Origin: Bacteroidota bacterium | GTDB taxonomy: Bacteria > Bacteroidota > Bacteroidia > JAKFFM01 | Assembly (NCBI GenBank): GCA_036675075.1 | Contig: JAKFFM010000048.1 | Location: 47-64,046 of the forward strand | Length of the DNA: 64,000 nucleotides | Reading direction: 5' to 3' | Shown: in pieces, positions 11,587 to 53,781 of the stretch | Numbering within the stretch: position 1 is the first letter of the stretch | Layout of the letters: each line of letters opens with the position of its first letter | Program-made: the position numbers and the translations under genes | Notes under the pieces: model-generated | Databases searched by the model: none | Seen by the model: the letters and a program-made list of their open reading frames with translations, nothing else | What the model was told of the DNA's origin: nothing

Positions 11587-11618
11587 ACCCGTATAGCCAG
11601 AGGATATAGTGCTCATTA

Positions 11619-11818
11619 GAGGTTTAAAGTTCAAAGTTTAAGGTTCAAAGTGGAATACGAAATGCTGCGAATTAAGTACTCATTTGGAGTTTAAAGTTCA
11701 AAGTTTAAGGTTCAAAGTGGAATACGAAATGCCGCAAATTAAGTACTCATTTGGAGTTTAAGGTTCAAAGTTTAAGGTTCAAAGTGGAATACGAAATGCC
11801 GCAAATTAAGTACTCATC
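11619..11818. repeat. Three tandem ~67-bp units (GGAGTTTAAAGTTCAAAGTTTAAGGTTCAAAGTGGAATACGAAATGCCGCAAATTAAGTACTCATTT)
   Basis: The units are near-identical and start 33 bp after the stop of the 10138..11586 gene. They are related (~85% identity over the core) to the repeat units at 17278..17724. Confidence 0.8.
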
Positions 11819-11823
11819 TTTTG

Positions 11824-11888
11824 GCTACTGGAAACTGGCAACTGGCAACTGAAAACTGAAAACTGGAAACTGCCTACTGCCTACTGCC
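11824..11888. repeat. Hexanucleotide microsatellite, ~11 x (ACTGNN): GGCTACTGGAAACTGGCAACTGGCAACTGAAAACTGAAAACTGGAAACTGCCTACTGCCTACTGCC
   Basis: Strict 6-bp periodicity of the ACTG core. A similar tract (CTGCCTACTGGCTACTGGAACTGGAACTGGCTACTG) recurs at 17606-17641. Confidence 0.8.
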
Positions 11889-17277: not shown

Positions 17278-17724
17278 ACGGGAAAGTTTCGCGTTTCGAG
17301 TTTGGGCATAGGAAATGATGCGAGAGTTTAAGGTTCAAAGTTTAATGTTTAAAGTGGCAGTCAAAATGCCGTAAGCTTAGTACTCTAAACTTTGCCAACG
17401 GGAAAGTTTCGCGTTTCGAGTTTCCTGGTTTCGAGTTTAAGCATAGGAAATGATGCGAGAGTTTAAGGTTCAAAGTTTAATGTTTAAAGTGGCAGTCGAA
17501 ATGCCGTAAGCTTAGTACTCTAAACTTTGCCAACTCAAACTAATCGAAATCACCATATCAACCTGGATGTTCCGGTGATGTACTCAATTTCCTCGCAACT
17601 GCACACTGCCTACTGGCTACTGGAACTGGAACTGGCTACTGAAAAACAGTTTAAAGAGGAAAACGAAATGCAATAAGTTAAGTACTCTACATTTTGCCAA
17701 CTGCAAACTTTGCCAACTGCAAAC
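17278..17724. repeat. Composite intergenic repeat: two ~121-135-bp tandem units (CGGGAAAGTTTCGCGTTTCGAGTTT...GAGTTTAAGGTTCAAAGTTTAATGTTTAAAGTGGCAGTCRAAATGCCGTAAGCTTAGTACTCTAAACTTTGCCAAC), an ACTGNN hexamer tract (17606-17641), a third partial unit, and a 2x TTGCCAACTGCAAAC direct repeat
   Basis: Starts at the first base after the punA stop and ends ~20 bp before the next gene's ATG. The core is ~85% identical to the 11619-11818 units. Confidence 0.8.
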
Positions 17725-17744
17725 TAATTTCCCTAAATTTATAT

Positions 17745-21755: not shown

Positions 21756-24742
21756 GAATCATCCATCTACTTTTGATCTTCTGCATCATGCCTGCGTTAG
21801 CTGATGCGAAAGAATACTTTCAACAGTCGCTTCATTACACGATCGATGTCAGGCTTGATGATATAAAGCATGAGCTACATGGATTTGAAACAATCAGATA
21901 CAAGAACAATTCACCGGATGCTCTGCCATTCATTTACTTTCATCTGTGGCCGAATGCCTATAGAGAAACGAATACAGCACTTGGAAAACAGCTGACAGAA
22001 TCAGGTAAGCTGGATTTTCATTTTTCAAAACCAAAGGACAGAGGGTATATCGATAGCCTGAATTTCATGGTTGACGGACAGTCTGTAAAGATGGAAGCCG
22101 ATCCGAAGCATATTGATATCTGCAAGTTGATATTAAACAAACCATTGCAACCCGGTGAAGAGATCACGATCACTACACCCTTTCATGTGAAGATTCCTTC
22201 TGCGAAATTCAGCAGGCTTGGTCATATCGATCAGTCATACCAGATCTCACAGTGGTATCCGAAACCCGCAGTATATGATAACAATGGATGGAACCAGATA
22301 CCCTATCTGAACCAGGGAGAATTCTATTCAGAGTATGGAACATTTGATGTGACCATCACCCTACCAAAGAATTATGTAGTAGGTGCAACGGGTGATCTTG
22401 TGAATGGTGAAAAAGAAACAGAGTGGCTGAATGAAAAGGTAAAAGCCACTGAAGAAAAGAATGGAAATTTCACGACTTCTGATCTGAAGTTTCCTGCATC
22501 GGATGCTGAGATGAAATCACTGCATTATCACCAGGAGAACGTTCATGATTTTGCATGGTTTGCTGATAAACGTTTTCATGTTTTAAAAGGAGAAGTCACA
22601 CTGCCTCACAGCAAGCGCAAAGTAACTACCTGGACCATGTTCACCAATGCGGAAGCCAACCTGTGGTCGAAAAGCATTGAATACATGAACGATGCTATTT
22701 ACTATTATTCTTTGTGGAACGGAGATTATCCTTACAACCATGCGACAGCTGTGGATGGTACATTGAGCGCAGGTGCAGGAATGGAATATCCGAATGTTAC
22801 GGTAATAGGAACATCAGGAAGTGCATTCATGCTTGAAGTGGTGATCGTACATGAAGTAGGACACAACTGGTTTTATGGGATCCTTGGAAGCAATGAACGA
22901 ACACACCCGTGGATGGATGAAGGCCTGAACTCTTTCAATGAATTACGTTATGTAAGGAACAAGTATCCAGACAGAAAACTTGCGGGATCTTCAGCCGAAA
23001 ACGGTCCTGGGAAAATATTTGATTTCGCACACCTGAAGCAGAAAGCACAATACGAACTTTCCTACCTGGTAAATGCACGACGTGGACTTGACCAGCCTAT
23101 GGAATTGCCGGCTCATGAATTTACAGAGCTCAACTACGGTGGAATTGTGTACAGCAAATCAGCGCTTGTGTTTGACTACCTGAGAGCCTTTCTCGGGAAC
23201 GATACATTTGATAAAGCCATGCAGCGGTATTTTGAAGAATGGAAATTTAAACATCCAGCCCCTGCCGACCTTCGGAGATCGATTGAAGAAAGCACAGGTA
23301 AAAAGCTCGACTGGTTCTTTGATGATATGATCAACACAACGAAAAAAGTTGATTACAAGATCTGTCATGTCAACAAAACAAAGGGATATCCTGAAGTCAC
23401 GATCAAAAACAAAGGTGGCATATCAGGGCCTGTGCAGGTCAATGGCATCATCGATGGAAAGATGCGAACAAGCGTTTGGTATGACCTGAGCAAGGTTGAA
23501 GGAAAGAAAGCTGTAGTAGGAATTCCTGCCGGAGATTATGACAGGATCGTCATTGATCACCCGGGCGAGATCCCCGAGATCAGCAGGAAGAACAACACCT
23601 ACAAGATGAAGGGGCTGTTTAAAAAGACAGAACCTTTACGATTGCAGTTTTTAGGTGCAGTAGAAAATCCTGATAGAACACAACTGTTTTTTGCGCCTAT
23701 TGGCGGATGGAACTATTATGATAAAGGTATGGCCGGGATCGCCGTGTATAACCACTTTTTCCCGGAGCGAAAGTTTCAATACACCTTTGCTCCGATGTAT
23801 GGTTTTGGCTCAAAGACATTAACAGGATTTGCATCTGTGTCACAGACCTTCTATCCTAAAACTTTTTTTCGAAATATCAGGATTGGTGTAAGTGGCAGAA
23901 GGTTTTCCACAGCTGCTTTTCCAGATGCCGGAATCTCCTCAGGAACCTATTTCAAAATTGATCCGGAGATCACCTTCGAGCTGAGGAAAAAAAGGATGAG
24001 AAGCTCCTTCACACAAGAGATCACACTTCGTGAAGTGATGGTTGATGAACATTACAAACTGCTTCCGGACGCCATAATGAATGGCCAGGATCAATACATA
24101 CGGATAGGCCAGGTTACGTATTCAGCAAAGAACAAACGCAAACTCAATCCTTATGGATTCAGCATCACTGCAGAGAACAGCCAGACCAGTGGTTCAGAAT
24201 ACACAAAGCTTATGGCATCAGCAAGCTATTACATCAGCTATCGTGGCAAGAAAAATAAAGGACTTGATATTCGTGTATTTGGTGGAAAGATGTTCAGTGA
24301 ACCAGCAGACTCCCGCTTTATGTTTGGATTTGGATATCCATCATCAGGGATGTTCGATTACACCTATGACCACCTTTACCTGGGCAGGTATGAAACATCC
24401 GGATTTCTCAGCCAGCAGGTCGTTCAGAAAGATGCTGGATTCATTCACCAGACAAATGCATCCTTCAGGAACACGTCCATCGCAGCGCTCAATGTGAATG
24501 CAGCGGTGCCTGTAAAGCTGCCTGTTTCAGTATATGCAAACACCGGCATGGCAAACAATGTGAACGATGTGATCTTTGAAACAGGAGCAAGCTTTTCGAT
24601 TATAAAAAACATCTGTGAAGTTTATTTTCCGATCTATCAGACACATCCTGCCACAGGACTTTCCTATGCAGAAAAGATCAGGTTTACTTTGAACATTCAC
24701 CTTGCAAATCCGTTTGACCTTGCCCGTGATTTTAACATGTGA
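21752..24742 (+). CDS. M1-family (gluzincin) metallopeptidase-like protein, 996 aa, secreted
   Basis: Signal peptide. HEXXH-x18-E zinc motif VIVHEVGHNWFYGILGSNERTHPWMDEGLNSF. Confidence 0.75.
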   Translation: MRIIHLLLIFCIMPALADAKEYFQQSLHYTIDVRLDDIKHELHGFETIRYKNNSPDALPFIYFHLWPNAYRETNTALGKQLTESGKLDFHFSKPKDRGYIDSLNFMVDGQSVKMEADPKHIDICKLILNKPLQPGEEITITTPFHVKIPSAKFSRLGHIDQSYQISQWYPKPAVYDNNGWNQIPYLNQGEFYSEYGTFDVTITLPKNYVVGATGDLVNGEKETEWLNEKVKATEEKNGNFTTSDLKFPASDAEMKSLHYHQENVHDFAWFADKRFHVLKGEVTLPHSKRKVTTWTMFTNAEANLWSKSIEYMNDAIYYYSLWNGDYPYNHATAVDGTLSAGAGMEYPNVTVIGTSGSAFMLEVVIVHEVGHNWFYGILGSNERTHPWMDEGLNSFNELRYVRNKYPDRKLAGSSAENGPGKIFDFAHLKQKAQYELSYLVNARRGLDQPMELPAHEFTELNYGGIVYSKSALVFDYLRAFLGNDTFDKAMQRYFEEWKFKHPAPADLRRSIEESTGKKLDWFFDDMINTTKKVDYKICHVNKTKGYPEVTIKNKGGISGPVQVNGIIDGKMRTSVWYDLSKVEGKKAVVGIPAGDYDRIVIDHPGEIPEISRKNNTYKMKGLFKKTEPLRLQFLGAVENPDRTQLFFAPIGGWNYYDKGMAGIAVYNHFFPERKFQYTFAPMYGFGSKTLTGFASVSQTFYPKTFFRNIRIGVSGRRFSTAAFPDAGISSGTYFKIDPEITFELRKKRMRSSFTQEITLREVMVDEHYKLLPDAIMNGQDQYIRIGQVTYSAKNKRKLNPYGFSITAENSQTSGSEYTKLMASASYYISYRGKKNKGLDIRVFGGKMFSEPADSRFMFGFGYPSSGMFDYTYDHLYLGRYETSGFLSQQVVQKDAGFIHQTNASFRNTSIAALNVNAAVPVKLPVSVYANTGMANNVNDVIFETGASFSIIKNICEVYFPIYQTHPATGLSYAEKIRFTLNIHLANPFDLARDFNM

Positions 24743-25512
24743 TGAAATTAGCGGCAGGTAAAAAGATCTATTTCGCATCAGACTTCCATCTCGGTGTGCC
24801 ATCAAAAGCGGCAAGCCTTGAACGGGAAAAACGAATCGTAAGGTGGCTTGATCAGGTAAAGCAGGATGCTGCGGAGATTTACCTCGTTGGCGACATCTTT
24901 GATTTCTGGTTCGAGTACAGGCATGCGGTTCCCAAAGGCTTCGTGAGGCTCCAGGGAAAAATAGCGGAGATCACTGACAGTGGGATACCAGTACACTATT
25001 TCACAGGAAACCATGATATGTGGGTGTTCGATTATATTCCGGAGGAGCTGGGTGTAAGCCTGTTTCGGGAACCAGTTGAAAGAGAATATTCCGGCAGGAA
25101 ATTCCTGATCGGACATGGTGACGGATTAGGGCCTGGAGACAAAGGATACAAGTTCATCAAAAAAGTTTTCTCATCGAAAGTGTGTCAATGGATGTTTGGA
25201 AAGCTGCATCCAGACTGGGGTATAGGACTTGCAAACTTCTGGAGCGGACGAAGCAGAGAAACGAAAAGCTTACCTGATGAAGTTTTTCTCGGGGAAGAAA
25301 ATGAATGGCTCGTTCAGTACTGCAAAGAAGTCATCAAGGAAAAACACTTCGACTATTTTATTTTTGGACATCGGCACCTCCCACTCGACATCAAGATCGG
25401 TGACAAATCAAGATACATCAACCTCGGAGACTGGATCAGGTACAACACCTATGCTGTTTTTGACGGAGATCATTTGCTTCTCAAAAAATTTGAAACATTC
25501 CAGGCAGAGTAA
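24739..25512 (+). CDS. Calcineurin-like metallophosphoesterase, LpxH-like UDP-2,3-diacylglucosamine hydrolase
   Basis: Motifs ASDFHLG, LVGDIFDFW, GNHDMW, GHGD and GHRH in the order expected for the LpxH/YbbF family. Confidence 0.7.
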   Translation: MMKLAAGKKIYFASDFHLGVPSKAASLEREKRIVRWLDQVKQDAAEIYLVGDIFDFWFEYRHAVPKGFVRLQGKIAEITDSGIPVHYFTGNHDMWVFDYIPEELGVSLFREPVEREYSGRKFLIGHGDGLGPGDKGYKFIKKVFSSKVCQWMFGKLHPDWGIGLANFWSGRSRETKSLPDEVFLGEENEWLVQYCKEVIKEKHFDYFIFGHRHLPLDIKIGDKSRYINLGDWIRYNTYAVFDGDHLLLKKFETFQAE

Positions 25513-25551: not shown

Positions 25552-27549
25552 GTGAAACTGCCAGCTTTCCTGTTCCTTATTCTTTTATCCTTTTGTAATG
25601 TCATGCCTGCGCAGGATAAAATGAAAGGAGACACCTTGGAAACCCGGCTCCACCAGTCGAAAGAAGATACATCCAAAGTGCATTTGCTGAATGACATCAC
25701 CTGGCAGTATCTGAAATCCAACACGACGAAATCACTGTCATATGGTAAAGAGGCACTTGCACTTGCTCAGAAGCTGAAGTTCGGAAAAGGTGAAGCAAGA
25801 AGTCATCTCAACCTTGGCAATATCTACTATGTGCTGGGTGATTACAAGCGCTCTCTTGATCATTATTTAGAAGCGCAGGAGTATTATACTTCTGTCGATG
25901 ACAGGAAAGGAATTGCGAGCTGCCTGCTAGCAGTAGGAAATATTTATTTTGCCCAGAATAACCTTGATGAATCGCTGAACTACCAGCTTAAATCATTGAA
26001 GATCCGGGAAGAGCTAAATGACAAAGCAGGTATCAGCGGTTGTTACACAAACCTTGGAAATATTCATTTTGAACGAAAGGAATACGACAAAGCACTTGAC
26101 TACCATCTTAAATCGATTGTCCTGAAAGAAGAACTTGGAGATAAAAAGGGACTCTCTTCAAGCTATGGCAACATCGGCAACATCTATTATGAGCTGGGCA
26201 ACAATGAGCTGGCACTCGATTATACTCTGAAGGCAACAGGGATCAGGTATGCATTGGGAAACAAAAGTGGCTTGTCAGGAAGCTATGTAAGTCTTGGACA
26301 GATCTATGAAAAGATGGGTAGGACTGAAAAAGCCATACAGTCTTATAAAGATGCCATTGAAATAGCGAAGGAAATAAATTTCAGGGACGGGATGAAAGGA
26401 GCCTATGCTGCCCTTGCAAAAGCTTACGAGAATAAAGGAGATATTCCAAATGCATACGAAGCATACAAGCGTTATACCGGGCTTAAGGATTCATTGATGA
26501 ATGAAACAACCTCTGAACAGCTCACAGAGATGAATGCCCGGTTTGAATCGGAAAAGAAAGAAAAAGAGATAGCGCTTCTGACGAAAAATGAAAAAATCAA
26601 TCAGCTTGAAATCCAGCAGCATGAGGCAACTCTGAAGAAGCAGCGCATCATTGTGTACTTCATTATTGCAGCACTGCTTGGTATTGCCTTATTCTCTTAT
26701 GTGCTTTACAACAGGTATCAGTTGAAGAAGAAAGCCAACAACAGGCTTGAAGAGGCATATAACCAGATCGAAGAAAAGAACAAGGACATCACCGACAGCA
26801 TACGTTATGCAAAGAGGATCCAGGAAGCGATATTTCCTGGAGAAGAAAGTTTGCGTGAAGTCTTTTCAGATTCATTTGTTCTTTATAAACCCAAAGCCAT
26901 TGTCAGCGGAGATTTCTTCTGGACCTACAGAACAGATGATCATTACCTGTTTGCTGTCGCGGATTGTACAGGACATGGAGTACCCGGAGCATTGATGAGC
27001 ATCGTATGTTATAATCTCATTAACCAGGCTGTAACAGAACGCAAGCTCAGGCAGCCATCGCATATCCTGACATATCTTGATAAAGGTGTCAGGGAAACAT
27101 TCAAAAGACCAGGTGAACATCATCTTCGGGATGGGATGGATATTGCATTCTGCAGCCTTGACCTTAAGAAAGGCGAGATCGAATTTTCGGGAGCGAACAA
27201 TCCAGTCTGGATCGTCAGAACGAGCCATGACGGCAAGAAAGAGATCGTTGAACTAAAAGGCAACAAGCAGCCGATCGGGTTATTCAGGGACGTTTCAGAA
27301 TCTTTTGTTTCCAAAGCATTGAATATTTCAAAAGGAGATACGATCTATTTATTTACAGATGGCTATGCGGATCAGTTCGGCGGGCCGGAAGGGAAGAAAT
27401 TCAAATACAAGAGATTAAAAGAACTTCTGTATACATCCTCACACCTGGCGATGAACGAGCAGCTTGCGCTTATTGAAAAGCGTCTGGAAGAATGGAAAGG
27501 CGCCTACGAGCAGGTCGATGACATCCTTCTTCTTGGAGTGAAGATCTAA
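25552..27549 (+). CDS. Sensor phosphatase: signal peptide, periplasmic TPR repeats, one TM helix, coiled coil, C-terminal SpoIIE/PP2C phosphatase domain
   Basis: TPR-like repeats (NLGNIYYVLGDYKRSLDHY... x6); TM segment IIVYFIIAALLGIALFSYVLY; PP2C motifs FVLYKPKAIVSGDFFW, VADCTGHGVPGALMS, DGMDIAFC and FTDGYADQFGG. Confidence 0.8.
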   Translation: MKLPAFLFLILLSFCNVMPAQDKMKGDTLETRLHQSKEDTSKVHLLNDITWQYLKSNTTKSLSYGKEALALAQKLKFGKGEARSHLNLGNIYYVLGDYKRSLDHYLEAQEYYTSVDDRKGIASCLLAVGNIYFAQNNLDESLNYQLKSLKIREELNDKAGISGCYTNLGNIHFERKEYDKALDYHLKSIVLKEELGDKKGLSSSYGNIGNIYYELGNNELALDYTLKATGIRYALGNKSGLSGSYVSLGQIYEKMGRTEKAIQSYKDAIEIAKEINFRDGMKGAYAALAKAYENKGDIPNAYEAYKRYTGLKDSLMNETTSEQLTEMNARFESEKKEKEIALLTKNEKINQLEIQQHEATLKKQRIIVYFIIAALLGIALFSYVLYNRYQLKKKANNRLEEAYNQIEEKNKDITDSIRYAKRIQEAIFPGEESLREVFSDSFVLYKPKAIVSGDFFWTYRTDDHYLFAVADCTGHGVPGALMSIVCYNLINQAVTERKLRQPSHILTYLDKGVRETFKRPGEHHLRDGMDIAFCSLDLKKGEIEFSGANNPVWIVRTSHDGKKEIVELKGNKQPIGLFRDVSESFVSKALNISKGDTIYLFTDGYADQFGGPEGKKFKYKRLKELLYTSSHLAMNEQLALIEKRLEEWKGAYEQVDDILLLGVKI

Positions 27550-27700
27550 TAGATTTTCATTGAGCCAGGTCAGATCATTTGTAATTACACTCTCATATAT
27601 TAACCTCAGTTGATTTCAGAAGGACACTGAATTATTGAAACACTTAAGTAACCGTTACTCATTGTAAGACCACCGCATCGGACTATCTTGACATCATTAA

Positions 27701-28165
27701 TTGAACAAGATGGCAGGAACATATTCACAACTTCACATTCAGCTCATTTTAGTTGTAAAGAGAAGACAACGATTAATAAAAAAGGAGTGGAAAGAAAATC
27801 TGTTCCGGTTTATGAATACGCTTATCCAATGTAACAATGCGAAACCAATTATTATAAACGGAGTAGAAGATCATGTTCATTTACTCATCGGAATCAGGCC
27901 GGTAGTAAAGATCTCCGAGCTTGCCCGACTGATTAAGACCAGCTCAACCAACTTTATCAACGACATCATCAAACCAGAAAAGAAATTCACCTGGCAGGAT
28001 GGCTACGCCGTCTTCTCATATAGCAAATCCGATTTACCCCGCCTCATCCGCTATATCGAAAACCAGGAAGAACACCATCGGAAAAAAGATTTAAAAGCGG
28101 AATACAAGCAGCTCCTCATCAAGCACCAGGTCGAGTTCGATCCAAAATACCTCATCGACGAATAA
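27701..28165 (+). CDS. IS200/IS605-family HUH tyrosine transposase homologue, REP-associated tyrosine transposase (RAYT)-like
   Basis: HUH motif VEDHVHLLIGI, catalytic Tyr motif RLIRYIENQEEHH, ~150 aa. No tnpB partner. Followed by an array of palindrome-containing repeats. Confidence 0.75.
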   Translation: MNKMAGTYSQLHIQLILVVKRRQRLIKKEWKENLFRFMNTLIQCNNAKPIIINGVEDHVHLLIGIRPVVKISELARLIKTSSTNFINDIIKPEKKFTWQDGYAVFSYSKSDLPRLIRYIENQEEHHRKKDLKAEYKQLLIKHQVEFDPKYLIDE

Positions 28166-28229
28166 AGAAATATTTCCGTTTTAATTAACGAAACAAAAGT
28201 AAAAGAAGTGGTAAGGAATGTCAGTCCGT

Positions 28230-28900
28230 TCTACCCGCCACCCTCATCAGTACCTGGTGATATCTCGATCCATCTTCACCAGGAACTGGTGATACACCGG
28301 TCAAGCCAGAAATTTAGTAGCTCTTTACCCTTCAACCTCTCCAAGCCCCCTCTACTCGTATTATTTTTTTTATCCCCCCGCCAAGCTCACCAGGAACTGG
28401 TGATACACCGGTCAAGCCAGAAATTTAGTAGCTCTTTACCCTTCAACCTCTCCAAGCCCCCTCTACTCGTATTATTTTTTTCCCCCGCCGAGCTCACCAG
28501 GAACTGGTGATACACCGGTCAAGCTAGAAATTTAGTAGCTCTTAACCCTTCAACCCCTCAAGCCCCCTCTACTCGTATTATTTTTATCCCCCGCCAAGCT
28601 CACCAGGAACTGGTGATACACCGGTCAAGCCAGAAATTTAGACCTATTAACCCTTCAACCTCTCCAAGCCCCCTCTACTCGTATTATTTTTATCCCCCAG
28701 CCAAACTCACCAGGAAATGGTGATATACCGGCCAAGCCAGAAATTTAGACCTATTAACCCTTCAACCCCTCTAAGCCCCCTCAACTCGTATTATTTTTTT
28801 ATCCTCCCGCCAAGCTCACCAGGAACTGGTGATATATCGGTCCACCCTCACCCCGAACTGGTGATACATCGGTCCAATTACCTCTTAGAAAAATCCATAT
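28230..28900. repeat. Six tandem ~110-bp REP-like units, each containing the palindrome CACCAGGAACTGGTG(ATACACCGGTC)
   Basis: Units start at about 28267, 28388, 28497, 28601, 28707 and 28816 with >85% identity. The inner palindrome is CACCAG-GAA-CTGGTG with an ACCGGT core. The last unit is degenerate and carries two palindrome copies. Confidence 0.85.
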
Positions 28901-29282
28901 AAACCGCATTCCATCGATGCCCATCAGGATCCGCAACACCACAACCATACATCCATCCCTGAACCTCCGCAGCCTCACTAAACACCGTTCCACCCGAAGC
29001 TTCCGCATTCTTCACCAGCTGATCCACATCTTCACGCGATTCAGCTCCTATCGAAAAAAGCACTTCAGATGATAACGAAGTATCTGACACCTTACTCCTT
29101 GTAAACGACTCAAACATATCCTCCTTGAATAGCATCAGGATCATCTCTTTATTCCCTATCATATAGCTCAATGAATCCTGACCACTATACTTCTCATTCA
29201 GTTTGAAGCCAATTCCTGAATAGAATTTCTTTGATCGCTCAATATCCTTAACCGGTAAATTTATCCAAAGGTCTTTTAGCAT
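28878..29282 (-). CDS. VOC (glyoxalase/bleomycin-resistance/dioxygenase) family protein
   Basis: 134 aa with MLKDLWINLPVKDIERSKKFYSGIGFKLNE, the typical beta-alpha-beta-beta-beta VOC N-terminus. Confidence 0.65.
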   Translation of the reverse strand: MLKDLWINLPVKDIERSKKFYSGIGFKLNEKYSGQDSLSYMIGNKEMILMLFKEDMFESFTRSKVSDTSLSSEVLFSIGAESREDVDQLVKNAEASGGTVFSEAAEVQGWMYGCGVADPDGHRWNAVYMDFSKR

Positions 29283-29307
29283 ATTGTTTTGTATTAATGG
29301 TGATCAC

Positions 29308-29736
29308 TTAATCGCGGAATAAATCGATCAGCAGGCTAAATGTATCAAGTGATGACTCCTTGCTGTCATGCTTGTCGAAATCAAGCGGCTTTAAGATATA
29401 TCCGGAAATACCCAGCTGCTGTGCGGCTATTTTATCATACTCCTCCTCAGAGGTTGTCATGATAAAGATCTTGATATGATTAAACGTAAAGTAGCTTCTG
29501 ATGATCCTGAGAAACTCAAGTCCATTCATCTTAGGCATGTTTATATCGAGAAGTATGATGTCAGGATTGATCTTCACTCCTCCAGGTGCATTACCATTCA
29601 GCAGTGAGAGTGCATCCACGCCGTTGTGCGCGACATGCAGTGTACAATTGACCTTTAGCTTTTTAAGCGCCCGTTCAACGCTCATCACATCCAGGTAATC
29701 ATCTTCAACAAGTAAAATCGTCTTATGCTTCATCAA
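29308..29736 (-). CDS. Stand-alone response-regulator receiver (CheY-like) protein
   Basis: ILLVEDDYLDVMSVERAL...DIILLDINMPKMNGLEFLRIIR...IFIMTTSEE...K, with Asp, Thr and Lys in the canonical positions and no output domain. Confidence 0.8.
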   Translation of the reverse strand: MMKHKTILLVEDDYLDVMSVERALKKLKVNCTLHVAHNGVDALSLLNGNAPGGVKINPDIILLDINMPKMNGLEFLRIIRSYFTFNHIKIFIMTTSEEEYDKIAAQQLGISGYILKPLDFDKHDSKESSLDTFSLLIDLFRD

Positions 29737-32551: not shown

Positions 32552-35434
32552 TTACTTTATCACGATAAATTTCGATGTGCCTTCACTTGCACCGGATACC
32601 TTAACAATATAGGTACCGTTTGCAAACTGATCTGTTTCGAGGCTCCAGATATTCTTACCTGCCTGAACATCTTTCATCGTTCTTTCATATACCAGTCGGC
32701 CATTCAGGCTGAAGATCCTGATCATCGCTTCACCTTTCTGCTTCGCAGTAAAGCTTAGTGTTGCTGATTCAACAACCGGGTTCGGGAATACCGTTACACT
32801 TACAGTAGATTTCACTTCAGGAGCATTGTCCCTGATACCTACGAAAGAGTTTGTTCTCCAAACACCGCGACCATGCGTACCAGCATAGATCACACCTGTG
32901 TTATTTACAAACCAGTCTGTGTGTGTCTGCTGACGAAGAGCAAATACCGGTACTGTCGGGAATCCTGTATTCTGTGCTACCCATGTAGGTGTTGCAGATG
33001 TCAACGCGTCTTCTGAACTCCATACTCCGTATTCAGTACCTACAAGCACAGTACCTGTAAGGTAATCAATCACTGATGAGTAAGTTGGAATTGTTGGAAG
33101 TGCGTTTGTTGTTCCCTGAACAGATGTCCAGCTTGCAAGAGTTCCGCTGACAGCAGCAGTTGTCGCGCTGGTATGACGGTAAACATAAGCTGTCTGACCA
33201 TAGTTACCGAACGTTACAATTACATTGTCAGAGTTTCTCGGATCAACAGAGATGCTTGTCACAGCTCTGCTGCCTGAGGCCGCACCGATCTGTGTACATG
33301 TAACCTGTGATCTTACATTTCCGATTTCACCTGTAAGTGTATCTGTTGCGCTGATCGTGCTCAGGTTGCTGATACGGTAAACTCTTCCACTTTCAGTTCC
33401 TACGAAAAGGTGATCACCATCATTAGAGAAAGCAAAGCACTGAACTGTTCCAAGGAATGCACTTGGCTTTGCAACACTGCTTGAAGCTACTCTTGCCCAT
33501 CCTGGTGTAGTTGAGAAATCAAGAGCACCTTTAGTCAGGTAAACTGAATTCGTTATACCGTAGGCAAATTTGGTCTGGATATAATCCCTTACTCTGATCG
33601 TCTGACCTGAATCCAGGTTAGAAGATAATGTATAAGATAAAGGAAGGTTGCTGGTGCGGCTCTTAGGAGCAATCAGTTCGCCTGCCAGGTAGTCACGGTC
33701 AGCGATGAAGTTCACAGAATCTGTAATATTAAGTGAATCATTCGCGCTTTCCCAAAGTCTGATCGGAGTTACGAAGCTTGCAAATCCGGGACTACCGATA
33801 CCAGCACCGCTTATCGTCAGGTTTTGGATACGTGCGCTAAAGAATTCAGATCCAGCTCCGCTCATACGCGTAGGTCTTCTTGTAAGCTGACCATAATAAA
33901 CTGTCTGGAACGTTACTTCTTCATTCAGGTAAGAGATCTCTGCCTGTCCACCGTCACCACCAGTGATCTCGTAAGCCACCTGTGATCCTGTTCCAAAAGT
34001 TGGAATGTACTGTGTACCGTTATCCTGAGTTCCACCAAGCACTTCACCCAGGTTGCTGAATGCTACCGAATAGAACTGCGTTACGTTGTAACCCTGGTTT
34101 CTGTTATAGAAAGATGTACCACCATCAGTTGAACGGAATACACCTCCATCATTTCCGATGTAGAATGTGTTCGCCAGAGTTGGATGGAATTTGATGTCGT
34201 GAATATCAGCGTGAACATATTTTGGATCCGCTGAGTAGGTGTACCATCTTGAAAGCTTCGTCCATGTAGTAGAAGCTGACCATGAATAAAGATCAAGTCC
34301 ACCAACAAGGATTCTGTTTTTGTCGTTTGGATCAACAGCAATGGCATTCGCGAAAGAGCCCTGCTGGCCAAGTGGGTTGAATGTTGAGCTTCCACCTGGT
34401 CCGATCACCTGCCATGTAGAACCTTTGTTCACTGACCTGTAGATTCCCTTTGTAGATCCGTTAGACGAAGCTACAGAACAGTAGATGTAGTTAGGATCAG
34501 ATGCTGCGAAAACTGATTCGTAACGAGCCTGGCTTTTTGGTAAGCTGTCTGCACCGTTTGATGTAATGACAACAAAGCTTCCCGGATTTCCAGTAGATGA
34601 CATGTAAACACCAGAACCAATGCTGGCGATCACTGTACCATCAGAAGCTACGTCAACATCGGCTGAGAAAGATCCAAGTGTGAAAGCTCCTATCCATGTT
34701 GCACCACCATCGTCAGAGATCTGAAGTCCTTTGTTGGTAGCAGCATATACACGCTGACTGTTCAATGGATTTACTGCCAACTCATTTACTGCAGCCCATG
34801 CGGCGATGTTACTGTTTGATGATGATGGAACAGTAGATGGAAGAACCGTGAATGATGAACCTCCGTCAGTGCTCTTGTAAACACCTTTTCCAATGACACC
34901 ACCTGCACCTGTACCATACTGTGCATACAAACCTTCACCGGTACCAACATAAATATCACCGTTAGGTCCCTGCGCTATGGCAGATACCGCGATGTTATCC
35001 ATCTGGTCGAATACTTTGGTCCAGCTTTGTCCACCATTGGTTGATTTCCAAAGTCCACCGGCAACTCCACCTGCAAAGATTTTATTGTTATCGTTCTTAT
35101 CAAAAAGGATCGCCCGTGTACGTCCTCCGACATTCGAAGGGCCCATCTCAATCCAGTTTACTGCAGCTGCTGTACGGCTGTTGGATCTCTTCAAAGCTTT
35201 AGCTACTTCTTCTTCAGCTTTAAGAACATCTTCAACGTCAATACGTCCTGTAGCAGGATTCTTTTTGATGTTCATATAGAACTCAAGGGCACCGTCAATT
35301 CCTTTTTTCTCTCCTTTTTCTTTCTTTGAAAGAACAGTAGAACTGTCGGTACCTGTCCATGATGGCACGAGCAAAAATGCGCTGCCCGCCACCGCGACAC
35401 CAAGACCAAAAAGAAGTAGCTTTTTATTTTTCAT
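32552..35434 (-). CDS. BNR/Asp-box repeat (sialidase / GH74 / sortilin-like beta-propeller) secreted protein with a T9SS C-terminal domain, 960 aa
   Basis: Signal peptide. Multiple S-x-D-G-G-x-(T/S)-(W/F) Asp-boxes (STNGGQSW, STDGGSSF, SDDGGATW, SVNKGSTWQ, STDGGTSF). The C-terminus ...VFPNPVVESATLSFTAKQKGEAMIRIFSLNGRLVYERTM...GTYIVKV is a T9SS CTD. Confidence 0.7.
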   Translation of the reverse strand: MKNKKLLLFGLGVAVAGSAFLLVPSWTGTDSSTVLSKKEKGEKKGIDGALEFYMNIKKNPATGRIDVEDVLKAEEEVAKALKRSNSRTAAAVNWIEMGPSNVGGRTRAILFDKNDNNKIFAGGVAGGLWKSTNGGQSWTKVFDQMDNIAVSAIAQGPNGDIYVGTGEGLYAQYGTGAGGVIGKGVYKSTDGGSSFTVLPSTVPSSSNSNIAAWAAVNELAVNPLNSQRVYAATNKGLQISDDGGATWIGAFTLGSFSADVDVASDGTVIASIGSGVYMSSTGNPGSFVVITSNGADSLPKSQARYESVFAASDPNYIYCSVASSNGSTKGIYRSVNKGSTWQVIGPGGSSTFNPLGQQGSFANAIAVDPNDKNRILVGGLDLYSWSASTTWTKLSRWYTYSADPKYVHADIHDIKFHPTLANTFYIGNDGGVFRSTDGGTSFYNRNQGYNVTQFYSVAFSNLGEVLGGTQDNGTQYIPTFGTGSQVAYEITGGDGGQAEISYLNEEVTFQTVYYGQLTRRPTRMSGAGSEFFSARIQNLTISGAGIGSPGFASFVTPIRLWESANDSLNITDSVNFIADRDYLAGELIAPKSRTSNLPLSYTLSSNLDSGQTIRVRDYIQTKFAYGITNSVYLTKGALDFSTTPGWARVASSSVAKPSAFLGTVQCFAFSNDGDHLFVGTESGRVYRISNLSTISATDTLTGEIGNVRSQVTCTQIGAASGSRAVTSISVDPRNSDNVIVTFGNYGQTAYVYRHTSATTAAVSGTLASWTSVQGTTNALPTIPTYSSVIDYLTGTVLVGTEYGVWSSEDALTSATPTWVAQNTGFPTVPVFALRQQTHTDWFVNNTGVIYAGTHGRGVWRTNSFVGIRDNAPEVKSTVSVTVFPNPVVESATLSFTAKQKGEAMIRIFSLNGRLVYERTMKDVQAGKNIWSLETDQFANGTYIVKVSGASEGTSKFIVIK

Positions 35435-51600: not shown

Positions 51601-53781
51601 AGTGAGGATATTCCAGCTACCTCCATTGTTCAGGGTGTATTCGATCTTCACATTCTGAACACTCGGGCTCACCCATTGAATATAATGTGAAGAGCCTCCG
51701 CCCCATCGTTCTCCGCCATTAGGAACAGTGACAGCAATCGCTGGTTGCGGAATGGTAAACACATTAGGGCTTTGGGAAACGATCTGTGTATTGAGGTTAT
51801 CTGTTAACCTGACAAGACATTTCGGAGAAGGTGTATTCGGAACGGTCCAGTAATAGTATCCGGTAGGACCGTCTGCACTGTTATCTATCAGGTTCCAGCT
51901 TACACCGTTGTTGGTTGAATATTCAATCGTCACCTCACTGACGCTTGATGAACCCCAGCTGATATAACGCGATGTACCTACACTCCAGGACTCACCTCCA
52001 ACAGGTGATGTAATTGAAAGCGAAGGCATCGGAATAGTGAATACCGCATTGCTCACATCATACACAAGGTTGCTGGCAACATCCGTTACACGCACTAAGC
52101 ATGAAGTGGATGGCGTATAAGGAACATTCCATAAATAATATCCAATGGATCCGTTCACATTGTTCGCAATCAGGTTCCAGCTTGAACCATTGTCAGCGGA
52201 GTATTCGATCTTCACAGATGCCACACTTGGTGCACTCCAATAGATGTAGTGATTTGTGAAGGCGCTCCATGACTCTCCACCATTCGGAGTAGTCACTTCA
52301 ATTGATGGGGCAGGGATCGTCCAGACTGCATCGCTGATATCAAAGAGTGAAGGATTACCGGTCTGGCTTACCTTCATCAGGCAGGTAGTTGAATACGTTG
52401 CAGGAACAGTCCAGTAATAGTATCCACTGAAAGCACTTATAGAATCAGCGATCAGAACCCAGTTCAGCCCGTTATCAAAGGAATAGTGAAGATCAACTGA
52501 ATCAACAGAAGCTGAGGTCCAGTAGATGTATTTATTTGTTCCTGCACCCCAAACATCGAAGCCATTAGGCTGATCAACTTCCAGAGATGGAGCAGGAATG
52601 GTAAATGGATCATCGCTTACATCAAACAACCCTGGATCAGCCGAAGAACTAACTCTTACACGACACTGATTCGAGTACATGTTCGGCACATTCCAATAAT
52701 AATAGCCAATGTTTGACTGATTAGTAACGATGGAAGTCCACGTAAGACCATTATCGATTGAAAGATCAATGTCCACATTTGTAAAGCCATTTCCGTTCCA
52801 TGTGATGTAATGGTTTGATCCTGCATTCCAGATCTCGAATCCATCAGGATCGGTGACCTCGATGGTAGGTCCAACGATCGTAAACACCGCGATGCTTGTA
52901 TCACCTACCGCAGGGTTCGAAGCATCCGTGGCACGGACAAGGCATTTCGTTGACGGCGTATTCGGAACTGACCACAGGTAATACTGAGATGCGGCTGATG
53001 TTGAGCTGATGATGGTATTCCATGTTGATCCGCTGTCAGTTGAATATTCGAGCTTTACATTCTGTACGCTTTCACTGTCCCAGATAATGTATTGATTTGT
53101 AGCATATCCCCAGTTCTCTCCTCCGTCAGGATCCGTAAGGTCAACATACGGTGCAGGGATCGTAAAGGTGAAGTCACTGATATCGAACAATGCAGCATTC
53201 GATGCATCGCTGATCTTTACAAGCGCCTCACTTGAAATATCATTCGGGATCAGCCATGCATAATAACCGGTAGAACCATTGTAATTCGAAACTACAGGCT
53301 TCCATGTGCTACCATAATCCGTTGAATACTGAATGTTGATCTGTGGAACACCTGGAGAATCCCAGTAAATATATTGAGTAGTGCCTACTCCCCAGATCTC
53401 TCCGCCATTCGGATATTCAACAGTAATTGAGGGAGGATTAATTGTAAATGGAAAATCGCAAACATCATTGGTCGCGGAATTCGAAGCATCAGAAACTCTG
53501 ACCAGACAATTGGTTGATGGTGTGGAAGGAATGATCCAGTACATGTATCCTGTACCTGCATTCTCATTCGAACTAAGGACTGTCCATGATGATCCTCCAT
53601 TGACGGAGTATTCAACTTTAGCTGTCGTAAAACCTGTTGCTGTCCATTCTATATAGATTCCAGCATCAATGTTGAACGTTTCTCCTCCAACAGGTTCATC
53701 AACAGTGACTGTTTGAGAAAAGACAGAATGAAAACTAAAAAAGGCAATAAAAAAAACCAGTGTTCGTAATGATCCCAGCAT
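48619..53781 (-). CDS. Giant (1720 aa) T9SS cargo protein: ~14 tandem ~90-aa Kre9/KNH-like Ig domains, a BNR/Ycf48-like propeller region, and a T9SS C-terminal domain
   Basis: Repeat consensus GGE.W..G....I.W.S..V..VKIEYS.DNG.SW..I.........Y.W.VP...S..C.VRVSD..N....DVSD..FTI. Later GG(T/Q)SW Asp-box-like repeats. The C-terminus VIYPNPASASVTIDG...VYDMHGRLVIPVK...GVYFIHIESD is a T9SS CTD. Confidence 0.75.
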   Translation of the reverse strand: MLGSLRTLVFFIAFFSFHSVFSQTVTVDEPVGGETFNIDAGIYIEWTATGFTTAKVEYSVNGGSSWTVLSSNENAGTGYMYWIIPSTPSTNCLVRVSDASNSATNDVCDFPFTINPPSITVEYPNGGEIWGVGTTQYIYWDSPGVPQINIQYSTDYGSTWKPVVSNYNGSTGYYAWLIPNDISSEALVKISDASNAALFDISDFTFTIPAPYVDLTDPDGGENWGYATNQYIIWDSESVQNVKLEYSTDSGSTWNTIISSTSAASQYYLWSVPNTPSTKCLVRATDASNPAVGDTSIAVFTIVGPTIEVTDPDGFEIWNAGSNHYITWNGNGFTNVDIDLSIDNGLTWTSIVTNQSNIGYYYWNVPNMYSNQCRVRVSSSADPGLFDVSDDPFTIPAPSLEVDQPNGFDVWGAGTNKYIYWTSASVDSVDLHYSFDNGLNWVLIADSISAFSGYYYWTVPATYSTTCLMKVSQTGNPSLFDISDAVWTIPAPSIEVTTPNGGESWSAFTNHYIYWSAPSVASVKIEYSADNGSSWNLIANNVNGSIGYYLWNVPYTPSTSCLVRVTDVASNLVYDVSNAVFTIPMPSLSITSPVGGESWSVGTSRYISWGSSSVSEVTIEYSTNNGVSWNLIDNSADGPTGYYYWTVPNTPSPKCLVRLTDNLNTQIVSQSPNVFTIPQPAIAVTVPNGGERWGGGSSHYIQWVSPSVQNVKIEYTLNNGGSWNILTPSTPAANGAFQWTVPFTPATQCMVKISDAANSTLSDVSDSLFVIPQASVKVLSPNGGEVWSVNTTKTITWESNTITNVKIEYTKDNGLTWNTIVSSVSALSGYYNWSVPLNAVGTCKVRISEIGNPSVNDVSDNSFTISGPSITLTAPVGGETLVAGSAYYITWSSNGILHVKLEYTTDNESSWTTIHPGLTNYDYYYWNVPANINSSTCKIRVTSTLNSALTSKSAANFSITPSVASLQVITPNGGETFYTGNSYYINWTSTAVNNVKIEYTLDNLLWQTITASTPSSNGFYYWNVPATPSLNARVRISDAANATVKDVSDTTFTIALSTPSVTVTSPNGGESWYAGSYHSITWNSNNIPAVDVSYSIDNGVNWISIANNVTDNFIYWYVPSTISPTCLVRVSSTGPLTVSDQSDSVFAIITSPPNNNVITTDSITPSVFCKQDTIKVYYTATGVYNSGNIFTAQISDSLGSFAYPKVIGSNASPASGYVTCVIPAYITNGNLFRIRVVSDDLPAIGTLSDTLTLNSPVFNFSGNDLNKYLPDGLVNFTFTGAPAQSYLWDFGDGNTSTVQSPSHTYNNIGYKTVSLQAVNVNGCALTVTKPFYVRVERLLPNVPINTNTVSDITGISFSNDTTGCISTMDGNCLVTFNGGDSWNAYPTGVAGLTSALWINASNVYVTGPNGAILKSVNGGQSWSSMTTGTTETINSIGVQRTNTRGYAVGSNGKVLTVNGTSWTNATSGTSANLRSVAISGTGKATAAGDNGTVLRTTDYGSTWNTVNPGVTNNLKQVTFADTLTGYIAAENGIVLLSVDGGTTWNVTLAGVDVSFSSVAVSRTGDTAWAASNSGVIYRTTNRGQSWGRYSKGSTNDNTNATYRTSRGYITGKGGDLITFEGDLDSAAIGVRELMNSSELFVIYPNPASASVTIDGQCESCHEVSVSVYDMHGRLVIPVKTESVSGMYRKVIPVQHLEAGVYFIHIESDVNSTVHRVVIAR

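Follow-up and report, generated by a model that had tools for sequence, protein, structure and literature searches.

A TnpA-Y1 subclass 1.2 gene with an adjoining tandem hairpin array: a probable REPtron-like module in Bacteroidota

Background

The DNA analyzed here, a 64,000-nucleotide (nt) stretch of contig JAKFFM010000048.1 from a Bacteroidota bacterium (hereafter the window), contains a tnpA-like gene for a Y1 transposase homologue of the HUH type, and this gene is followed on one side by a tandem array of hairpin repeats. How are the two related? An earlier interpretation made from the letters alone (the sequence-only reading) took the array for a cluster of repetitive extragenic palindromic (REP) sequences and the protein for a REP-associated tyrosine transposase (RAYT). 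Our results point to a different pairing, which we consider probable: a two-part module in which a vertically inherited, single-copy endonuclease/ligase for single-stranded DNA (ssDNA), belonging to TnpA-Y1 subclass 1.2, is accompanied by a private array of cognate hairpins in a REPtron-like manner.

Results

Class of the encoded protein

The gene in question is the following:

27710..28165, + strand: tnpA-like gene, 151-amino-acid (aa) Y1 HUH protein (homologue alignment, motif definitions of PMC6006769)

The open reading frame (ORF) 27701-28165 (+), to which 154 aa had been assigned, is real, and its longest form begins at TTG 27701; alignment with homologues, however, indicates ATG 27710 as the probable true start, which shortens the protein to 151 aa. 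The presence of an HUH transposase homologue beside tandem repeats was borne out, as were its motifs HVHLL and YIENQ: the protein matched Pfam Y1_Tnp (PF01797) with an E of 6e-24 and passed the NCBIfam equivalog model transpos_IS200 with 64.6 bits (cutoff 55). The HUH motif HVHLL is encoded from 27872, with DHVH at codons 54-57; WQ occupies codons 95-96; and in the Y motif YIENQ the catalytic Tyr115 (codon 28052-28054) is followed by Gln119 and His122-His123. The solved relatives found in a PDB search were the ISDra2, IS608 and Sulfolobus TnpAs, and the best match, ISDra2 TnpA (PDB 2xm3, E 1e-6), aligns with the HUH motif, the catalytic Tyr and the Gln(+4) of the window protein. Judged from these alignments, the catalytic residues are intact, and the HUH motif and Tyr that characterize Y1 transposases of the IS200/IS605 family are both present.

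Y1 proteins were sorted into classes by Quentin, Siguier, Chandler and Fichant (2018, BMC Genomics 19:475; PMC6006769). In their scheme, subclass 1.2 has the motifs DH[IV]H, WQ and Y---Q--HH and a length of ~148 aa including a subclass-specific C-terminal domain of ~30 aa; it occurs in low copy number in Cyanobacteria and Bacteroidetes, lacks insertion sequence (IS) properties and is listed as 'REP: no'. The W motif is W[TS] in subclass 1.1 and WQ in subclass 1.2, and the Y motif of class-2 RAYTs is YIxxNP (Table 1 of PMC6006769). The window protein reads EDHVHLL, FTWQDGY and YIENQEEHH at the three positions, and in an 11-member alignment D54, H55 and H57, W95 and Q96, and Y115, Q119, H122 and H123 are invariant. 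At 151 aa it also has the expected length, with E131, Y132, L136 and Y147 of the tail invariant in the same alignment; the gene is present in one copy in 64 kb, and its unique flanks are identical in five samples. The protein fits all published sequence criteria of subclass 1.2 and is assigned to it on these published motif signatures.

The comparison of RAYT with IS200 suggested by the sequence-only reading was run, and the RAYT identity was dropped. The Y motif is YIENQEEHH and not YIxxNP, the best solved relatives are ISDra2 and IS608, only the IS200 model matched in an NCBIfam search to E<=10, and no E. coli TnpA-REP chain was among the PDB matches at E<=1.

Relatives are numerous, with 605 matches in a 90%-clustered protein database and 2,626 representatives at E<=1e-10 in a 50%-clustered library; among the best 150 of the latter, most align through the C-terminal tail (residue ~148-150). 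No relatives were found in viral contigs searched with an alignment of the proteins. Gene callers shorten the tnpA-like gene or mislabel it as an IS200 transposase, and the public call of the window protein itself (P0001) starts at an internal ATG, yielding 117 aa that have lost the N-terminal strand.

In the 50%-clustered library, many of the best-scoring relatives are ~270-300 aa long and have two tandem Y1 domains (P0123, P0125, P0126 and ~25 others). In P0123 and P0125 the first domain retains the HUH motif, its catalytic Tyr being replaced by Phe (EFIGNQ, RFLARQ), and the second carries Y---Q--HH; the sequences of these two proteins suggest a dimer joined covalently, one of whose active sites has been disabled.

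Structure of the hairpin array

Another important question is what exactly is repeated. Tandem Repeats Finder reported a period of 107 (5.3 copies, 92% match) at 28276-28842 and a second period of 32 (1.9 copies) at 28815-28876. Read in register, the array at 28241-28876 consists of eight direct copies of a 7-bp hairpin core, arranged as follows:

28166..28240, no strand: gap of 75 nt between stop codon and hairpin units, closing with ~13 nt (CCCGCCACCCTC) that look like the linker end of the long units (CCCGCCAAGCTC)
28241..28272, + strand: degenerate short unit 1, 32 nt, CATCAG-TAC-CTGGTG then ATATCTCGATCC; loop and stem differ among strains
28273..28812, + strand: five long units of 111, 107, 106, 107 and 109 nt, each consisting of the core CTCACCAGGAACTGGTGATACACCGGTC and, after it, a C-rich linker of ~75 nt without predicted structure
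28387..28403, + strand: representative hairpin TCACCAG-GAA-CTGGTGA, 7-bp stem, GAA loop, -5.7 kcal/mol as ssDNA
28813..28876, + strand: two terminal short units of 32 nt each, core only, the basic array unit

Equivalents of the representative hairpin lie at 28276, 28494, 28600, 28707 and 28816. A search for the palindrome with up to 3 mismatches gave 14 matches, all inside 28245-28863, against 1.35 expected, and 14 was reached in 0/100 shuffles. The six units of ~110 bp described earlier correspond to five full units plus a truncated sixth; two further degenerate cores had been missed, so that the number of cores is eight. The ~110-bp unit is a local peculiarity, since the basic unit is ~32 nt and the periods in relatives are 25-55 nt.

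The direct, one-sided arrangement was confirmed, as every copy is direct and lies downstream of the gene, and so was the absence of IS200 ends: the 150 nt upstream (27550-27700) hold no hairpin or repeat, and all eight hairpins are downstream. The inter-hairpin segments are 90-100% alike. Accordingly, CRISPR was ruled out, as had been stated before, by the lack of unique spacers, by this similarity and by the lack of cas genes among the neighbors.

When a unit is folded as ssDNA, the 7-bp hairpin is the sole stable element, and the ~75-nt linker has no predicted structure exceeding shuffled controls. At the foot of the hairpin, the plus strand has AGCTC|ACCAG and the minus strand GTATC|ACCAG, with neither a GT[AG]G nor a CGTC tag; GTAG occurs only 25 nt off and only in 3/5 linkers.

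Spurious ORFs run across the repeat units at 28208-28510 (+), 100 aa, and 28717-28902 (+), 61 aa, and could be misannotated as hypothetical proteins.

The same pairing in relatives

In 12/12 lineages examined, hairpin repeats adjoin tnpA within 0-140 nt, mostly as tandem arrays. The lineages are the window and the 11 listed here, where (+) and (-) mark the strand on which the GAA-loop motif lies with respect to tnpA:

P0004 (L043-46): downstream; period 49, 10 copies on (-), then 2 inverted
Crocinitomicaceae P0007 (L047/48): downstream, from the stop codon; period 25, 15 on (-), then 2 inverted
Saprospiraceae P0022 (L049-52): both sides; a hairpin of another type, GTCCC-TGAC-GGGAC, with periods of 180 and 216
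Pseudochryseolinea flava P0086 (L053): upstream; 20 copies with period 47 that follow 2 inverted ones and stop 16 nt short of the ATG
P0108 (L056): upstream; 8 copies, the last one abutting ATG
P0043 (L058): both sides; an array on each side
P0090 (L059/60): upstream; 2 inverted, then 3 copies
Chryseolinea P0079 (L061): upstream; 2 copies, GTA loop
Sphingobacteriaceae P0038/P0061 (L054/55/68): upstream; other hairpins, 2 vs 1 copies between genomes
Bernardetia 602-kb replicon (L062): upstream; 4 copies, of which 2 are direct and 2 inverted
Persicobacter, 30% identity (L063): both sides; single inverted hairpins

A motif of the form A-N4-GAA-N4'-T-GA-N-AT(N)AT(T)CTA is common to seven lineages, including the window, whose proteins are ~45-55% identical. 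A covariance model, R1, was built from five of these seven and recovered the arrays of two lineages outside its training (L058 and L059) at ~40 bits. Across 77 matches, 97.2% of the stem cells were paired, against 41-53% in slid controls. Moreover, compensatory changes were found in 4/5 stem pairs, and cells in which both bases had changed numbered 47 compared with 10.4 in shuffles, a value reached in 0/500 shuffles.

The guide tetranucleotide of IS200/IS605 and REP elements lies 5' of the hairpin foot (PMC8266576). On the strand opposite to the GAA-loop motif, a conserved flank precedes the foot in the relatives, for example TAGAATAATGTC|ACTGC-TTC-GCAGT, and the minus strand of the window reads GTATC|ACCAG-TTC-CTGGT, with a conserved (A/G)TATC 5' of the foot. 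In the folding check proposed with the sequence-only reading, a 7-bp hairpin is predicted, and the minus-strand (A/G)TATC occupies the position of a guide tetranucleotide. By GC skew, the GAA-loop strand is the C-rich strand in 5/6 loci; these skews are weak and track gene orientation.

Could the arrays instead work at the RNA level, as structured untranslated regions (UTRs), small-RNA repeats or transcription barriers that regulate tnpA or its neighbors, with no role as a DNA substrate? In several relatives (L053, L056) the array ends at the tnpA start codon and must therefore lie in the promoter or 5' UTR. IS200 reportedly uses stem-loops in its 5' region for control, which we count in favor of this explanation. 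On the other hand, the arrays are found upstream or downstream of tnpA and on either strand relative to it, and the rest of the window unit shows no structure beyond shuffled controls. Rfam has no family for the window array or for the arrays of two relatives, returning only plant-miRNA artefacts far below threshold, and no intrinsic terminators or U tracts after the stems were detected in 27400-29400. We regard an RNA-level role as quite improbable.

Local confinement of the hairpins

Are the hairpins dispersed in the genome, as REPs are, or confined to the vicinity of the gene? Pattern searches, BLAST and the covariance model with filters off revealed zero hairpin copies in the 64-kb window outside 28241-28876. 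With R1, all window matches at E<0.01 fall inside 28272-28733, a weaker score is obtained for the last short unit (28844-28874), and the best match elsewhere has E = 0.41. E. coli carries ~600 REPs per genome (PMC3333891), and at that density ~8 copies would be expected in 64 kb. In ~200 kb flanking the loci of relatives (20-kb flanks), R1 matches at E<0.01 were restricted to tnpA-adjacent arrays; the one stray match in any locus (L058, 17014, E 0.025) falls inside a coding repeat. In Bernardetia, a BLAST search of the unit over the 602-kb replicon gave three places, all explained by the local cluster beside tnpA, and a fuzzy search allowing 4 mismatches over 200 kb of the replicon found nothing else carrying the flank.

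Two wider scans for the palindrome gave only candidates that we rejected. The 19-mer had 2 matches in 185,579 species genomes, both chance matches in unrelated metagenome-assembled genomes without flank similarity, and 35 matches in JGI metagenomes, all in unrelated coding sequences and most from one conserved gene.

These data bear directly on the classical RAYT/REP interpretation, in which a domesticated RAYT mobilizes genome-dispersed REP palindromes and the locus is a REPtron with a cluster resembling bacterial interspersed mosaic elements (BIMEs). Its layout is indeed found here, namely a single-copy Y1 gene adjoining hairpin repeats, with the array starting 75 nt past the stop on one side; REPtrons also carry tandem BIMEs in strain-variable number (PMC3333891), and JGI labels some homologues 'REP element-mobilizing transposase RayT', although this is a COG-level name. 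Against it stand the class of the protein, the direct rather than alternating repeats, the lack of the GT[AG]G/CGTC tag, and the absence of copies beyond the array in the window and of dispersed copies in the relatives. The description of the repeats as REP-like was abandoned for the last two of these reasons, and we consider the classical system improbable for this locus.

A fixed locus

The next issue is whether the gene is mobile. Its surroundings in the window include the following genes:

24739..25512, + strand: lpxH-like (UDP-2,3-diacylglucosamine diphosphatase-like) gene, context upstream, not part of the element
28878..29282, - strand: VOC/glyoxalase-family gene, convergent, right boundary of the array, context only

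The lpxH-like gene lies two genes upstream of tnpA, with a TPR-SpoIIE phosphatase gene in between; a two-component system including a response regulator is also nearby, and ORF 32552-35434 has a type IX secretion system (T9SS) sorting domain, which, like the taxa of the homologues, points to Bacteroidota. As the sequence-only reading had it, there is no tnpB near the window gene. A BLAST search found no second tnpA copy in the window.

In five Logan assemblies from different runs, the identical protein follows the same TPR-SpoIIE gene. All five tnpA contigs are unbroken through the left flank and end ~150 nt past the stop codon, inside the array, and a contig entering from the side of the VOC gene also ends inside the array; hairpin arrays of this kind break short-read assemblies. 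The closest homologue with a long contig, P0004 (L043, 54% identity), is located directly after an lpxH-like gene that is 48% identical to that of the window, and this shared neighbor speaks for a long stay of the gene at its locus. Two members with 91% identity occupy the same syntenic site in different genomes, between histidine-kinase and response-regulator genes. Because the locus is the same in five samples, no second copy exists in the window and synteny extends to distant homologues, the gene is apparently single-copy and fixed in place, not mobile.

The P0004 tnpA overlaps the stop of its upstream lpxH-like gene by 4 nt (L043 10001-10004), which suggests co-transcription with the lipid A gene.

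An ordinary IS200 copy lying by chance beside an unrelated, slippage-born minisatellite would account for some of these data: the NCBIfam IS200 equivalog model is passed, the nearest solved structures are IS200/IS605 transposases, and no enzyme is required for tandem repeats to form or to vary in copy number. However, hairpins accompany the gene in every lineage, with a conserved motif and covarying stems; there is no pair of left and right ends, the other side of the gene being free of hairpins; the flanks are unique and contiguous in five short-read assemblies, with synteny to a 54%-identical homologue; and subclass 1.2 had already been described as lacking IS properties (PMC6006769). A chance association is accordingly very unlikely.

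Array dynamics and a proposed mechanism

How do the arrays change? Two strain types encoding the identical P0004 protein are virtually identical in sequence outside the array, including the two inverted copies, whereas the array interiors differ by one unit, with linkers duplicated and rearranged. Several arrays have higher-order periods of 2-3 units. Among strains of the window's species, the loop is either GAA or GAG, and the first degenerate unit varies as well. With variable interiors and near-identical flanks, the arrays therefore evolve much faster than their surroundings.

We also considered foreign 'spacer' content and rejected it, as the linkers are reshuffled and duplicated variants of one theme, not acquired sequences.

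For the two-part module that we favor, a mechanism can be proposed by analogy with IS608 and ISDra2 TnpA and E. coli TnpA-REP. The enzyme would bind the hairpin in single-stranded DNA, for example on the lagging-strand template, and its guide or recognition element may be the conserved (A/G)T(A/G)TC that precedes the foot on the TTC-loop strand. It would then cut nearby and re-join strands. Because every unit carries the same site, whole units could be gained or lost in place: strand transfer between units would excise or insert them, leading to expansion, contraction and homogenization of the array without scattering. In the window, the 107-bp period may have formed when a 32-nt unit gained a ~75-nt linker and was then amplified. 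It has been shown in vitro that strand transfer by TnpA-REP is able to build up BIMEs in tandem (Ton-Hoang et al. 2012, PMC3333891).

Several points weigh against the module. The window hairpins are the most divergent of the motif group, scoring 22-28 bits compared with ~40 elsewhere, and three lineages use other hairpins. The side and orientation of the array relative to tnpA differ by lineage, so that there is no fixed geometry to constrain the mechanism. For the covariation analysis, perfect hairpins were picked as seeds and the alignment was fitted to the model. Evidence on dispersal in the source organism covers the 64-kb window, not the whole genome. Hairpin binding and cleavage are activities that we infer for the enzyme by analogy, and replication slippage or unequal recombination alone could give the observed array dynamics.

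A related possibility, which we hold to be unlikely, goes further: the subclass 1.2 enzyme and its array would form a self-contained, vertically inherited system, neither IS nor REP/RAYT, in which the HUH enzyme is dedicated to maintaining and constantly remodeling a private 'hairpin minisatellite' for a host function, for example by excising unit-length ssDNA circles or by acting as a programmable barrier to replication or transcription. If true, this would be a new class of enzyme-driven tandem-repeat locus, widespread in Bacteroidota and possibly Cyanobacteria.

Relation to known systems

The module, as we interpret it, agrees with the published description of subclass 1.2 (PMC6006769) in its motifs, in ~150 aa with a ~30-aa tail, in an apparently low copy number, in the lack of IS200-type ends and in its occurrence in Bacteroidetes/Cyanobacteria. 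It departs from the entry 'REP: no', as every member examined here has adjacent hairpin repeats. The automatic REP search of that study demanded GT[AG]G and a stem of >=7 bp, and the hairpins of the window and its relatives would therefore escape it.

The E. coli REPtron (PMC3333891) likewise has a single-copy, non-transposing Y1 gene bordered by tandem cognate hairpins, with homogeneous tandem copies whose number varies between strains and for which tandem assembly by strand transfer has been proposed. Its protein, however, belongs to class 2 and the window protein to class 1. Its REPs have a 5' GTAG, a stem mismatch, alternating orientation (in REPINs or BIMEs) and ~600 dispersed copies, whereas the window repeats are direct, untagged and seen beside the gene only.

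IS200/IS605 elements (IS608, ISDra2; subclass 1.1) are the closest solved homologues and share the HUH/Tyr/Gln catalytic set; the mechanism of this family is recognition of an ssDNA hairpin with a guide sequence 5' of its foot. Such elements have one hairpin per end, are multi-copy and mobile and often carry tnpB, unlike the window locus, which is fixed and has eight hairpins on one side, none on the other, and no tnpB. TnpA-Y1 subclass 2.6 (Bertels group 5, the Bacteroidetes RAYT-like proteins) comes from the same phylum but has the motifs NH[LIV]H and YIH[QN]NP and ~179 aa, and recurrence of its structures at other places in the genome has been reported.

In layout only, the locus is also analogous to an integron, in which the gene for a recombinase acting on folded ssDNA hairpin sites lies beside a direct array of such sites with a strain-variable interior. 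Integrons use a tyrosine recombinase in place of an HUH protein and have genes in their cassettes; compared with attC arrays, the 'cassettes' here are 12-80-nt non-coding linkers that resemble one another.

A literature search of incomplete coverage found no paper on arrays beside subclass 1.2 genes. New here, as we see it, is that a REPtron-like association occurs in another Y1 subclass, that its arrays are local and direct, and that its motif is shared by several families of Bacteroidota. Subclass 1.2, defined in 2018 without associated DNA repeats, thereby gains a candidate DNA partner. The pairing also suggests a wider notion of the REPtron, in which the hairpins of a domesticated single-strand transposase can stay together in one local, rapidly evolving array and are not spread over the genome, and this local-array case bears on the origin of REP systems from IS200-like elements.

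Additional observations

Some loci of relatives have features of their own. In the Persicobacter locus (L063; Persicobacter sp. JZB09 plasmid CP012861.1, 2500-4100), the subclass-1.2-like gene, with YIQNQKFHH and 30% identity, sits between directly repeated RHS-like coding segments, and its flanking inverted hairpins are ACCCC-AAA-GGGGT+GACACTTATTAG and CGATGGGT-GTTA-ACCCATCG; the second type recurs upstream of tnpA in L054 and L068. In Saprospiraceae (L049-L051, 6900-10000), the distance between the upstream array and tnpA varies among genomes from ~0.35 to 2 kb; a DDE_5 transposase is inserted between array and tnpA in L050, and a 52-nt poly-C run at 9696-9747 of L051 may be an assembly artefact.

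In Bernardetia sp. (NZ_CP147018.1), a tRNA-like T-arm, GGTTCGATTCCAAC, was noted just upstream of the hairpin cluster (L062 5700-5780, ~53660-53740 of the record); the PLSDB gene table for this replicon lists no RNA genes. The 602-kb 'plasmid' carries uvrA, gyrB, rplS, trpS and def, core genes that make it behave like a chromid. In this record, tblastn also indicated a second, weaker place resembling tnpA.

Finally, the window harbors another repeat family, in which R1 had no matches. It forms intergenic clusters at 11608-11888 (3.1 copies) and 17285-17725 (~2 copies) with a ~67-nt unit containing GAGTTTAAGGTTCAAAGTTTAAGGTTCAAAGTGG...GAAATGCCGCAAATTAAGTACTC, and the second cluster also holds TTTGCCAACTGCAAAC twice. 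Both clusters are trailed by heptamer runs (ACTGGAA/ACTGCCT and ACTGGCT, respectively), which loosely recall the intergenic TAACTGA direct repeats reportedly described in a published study.

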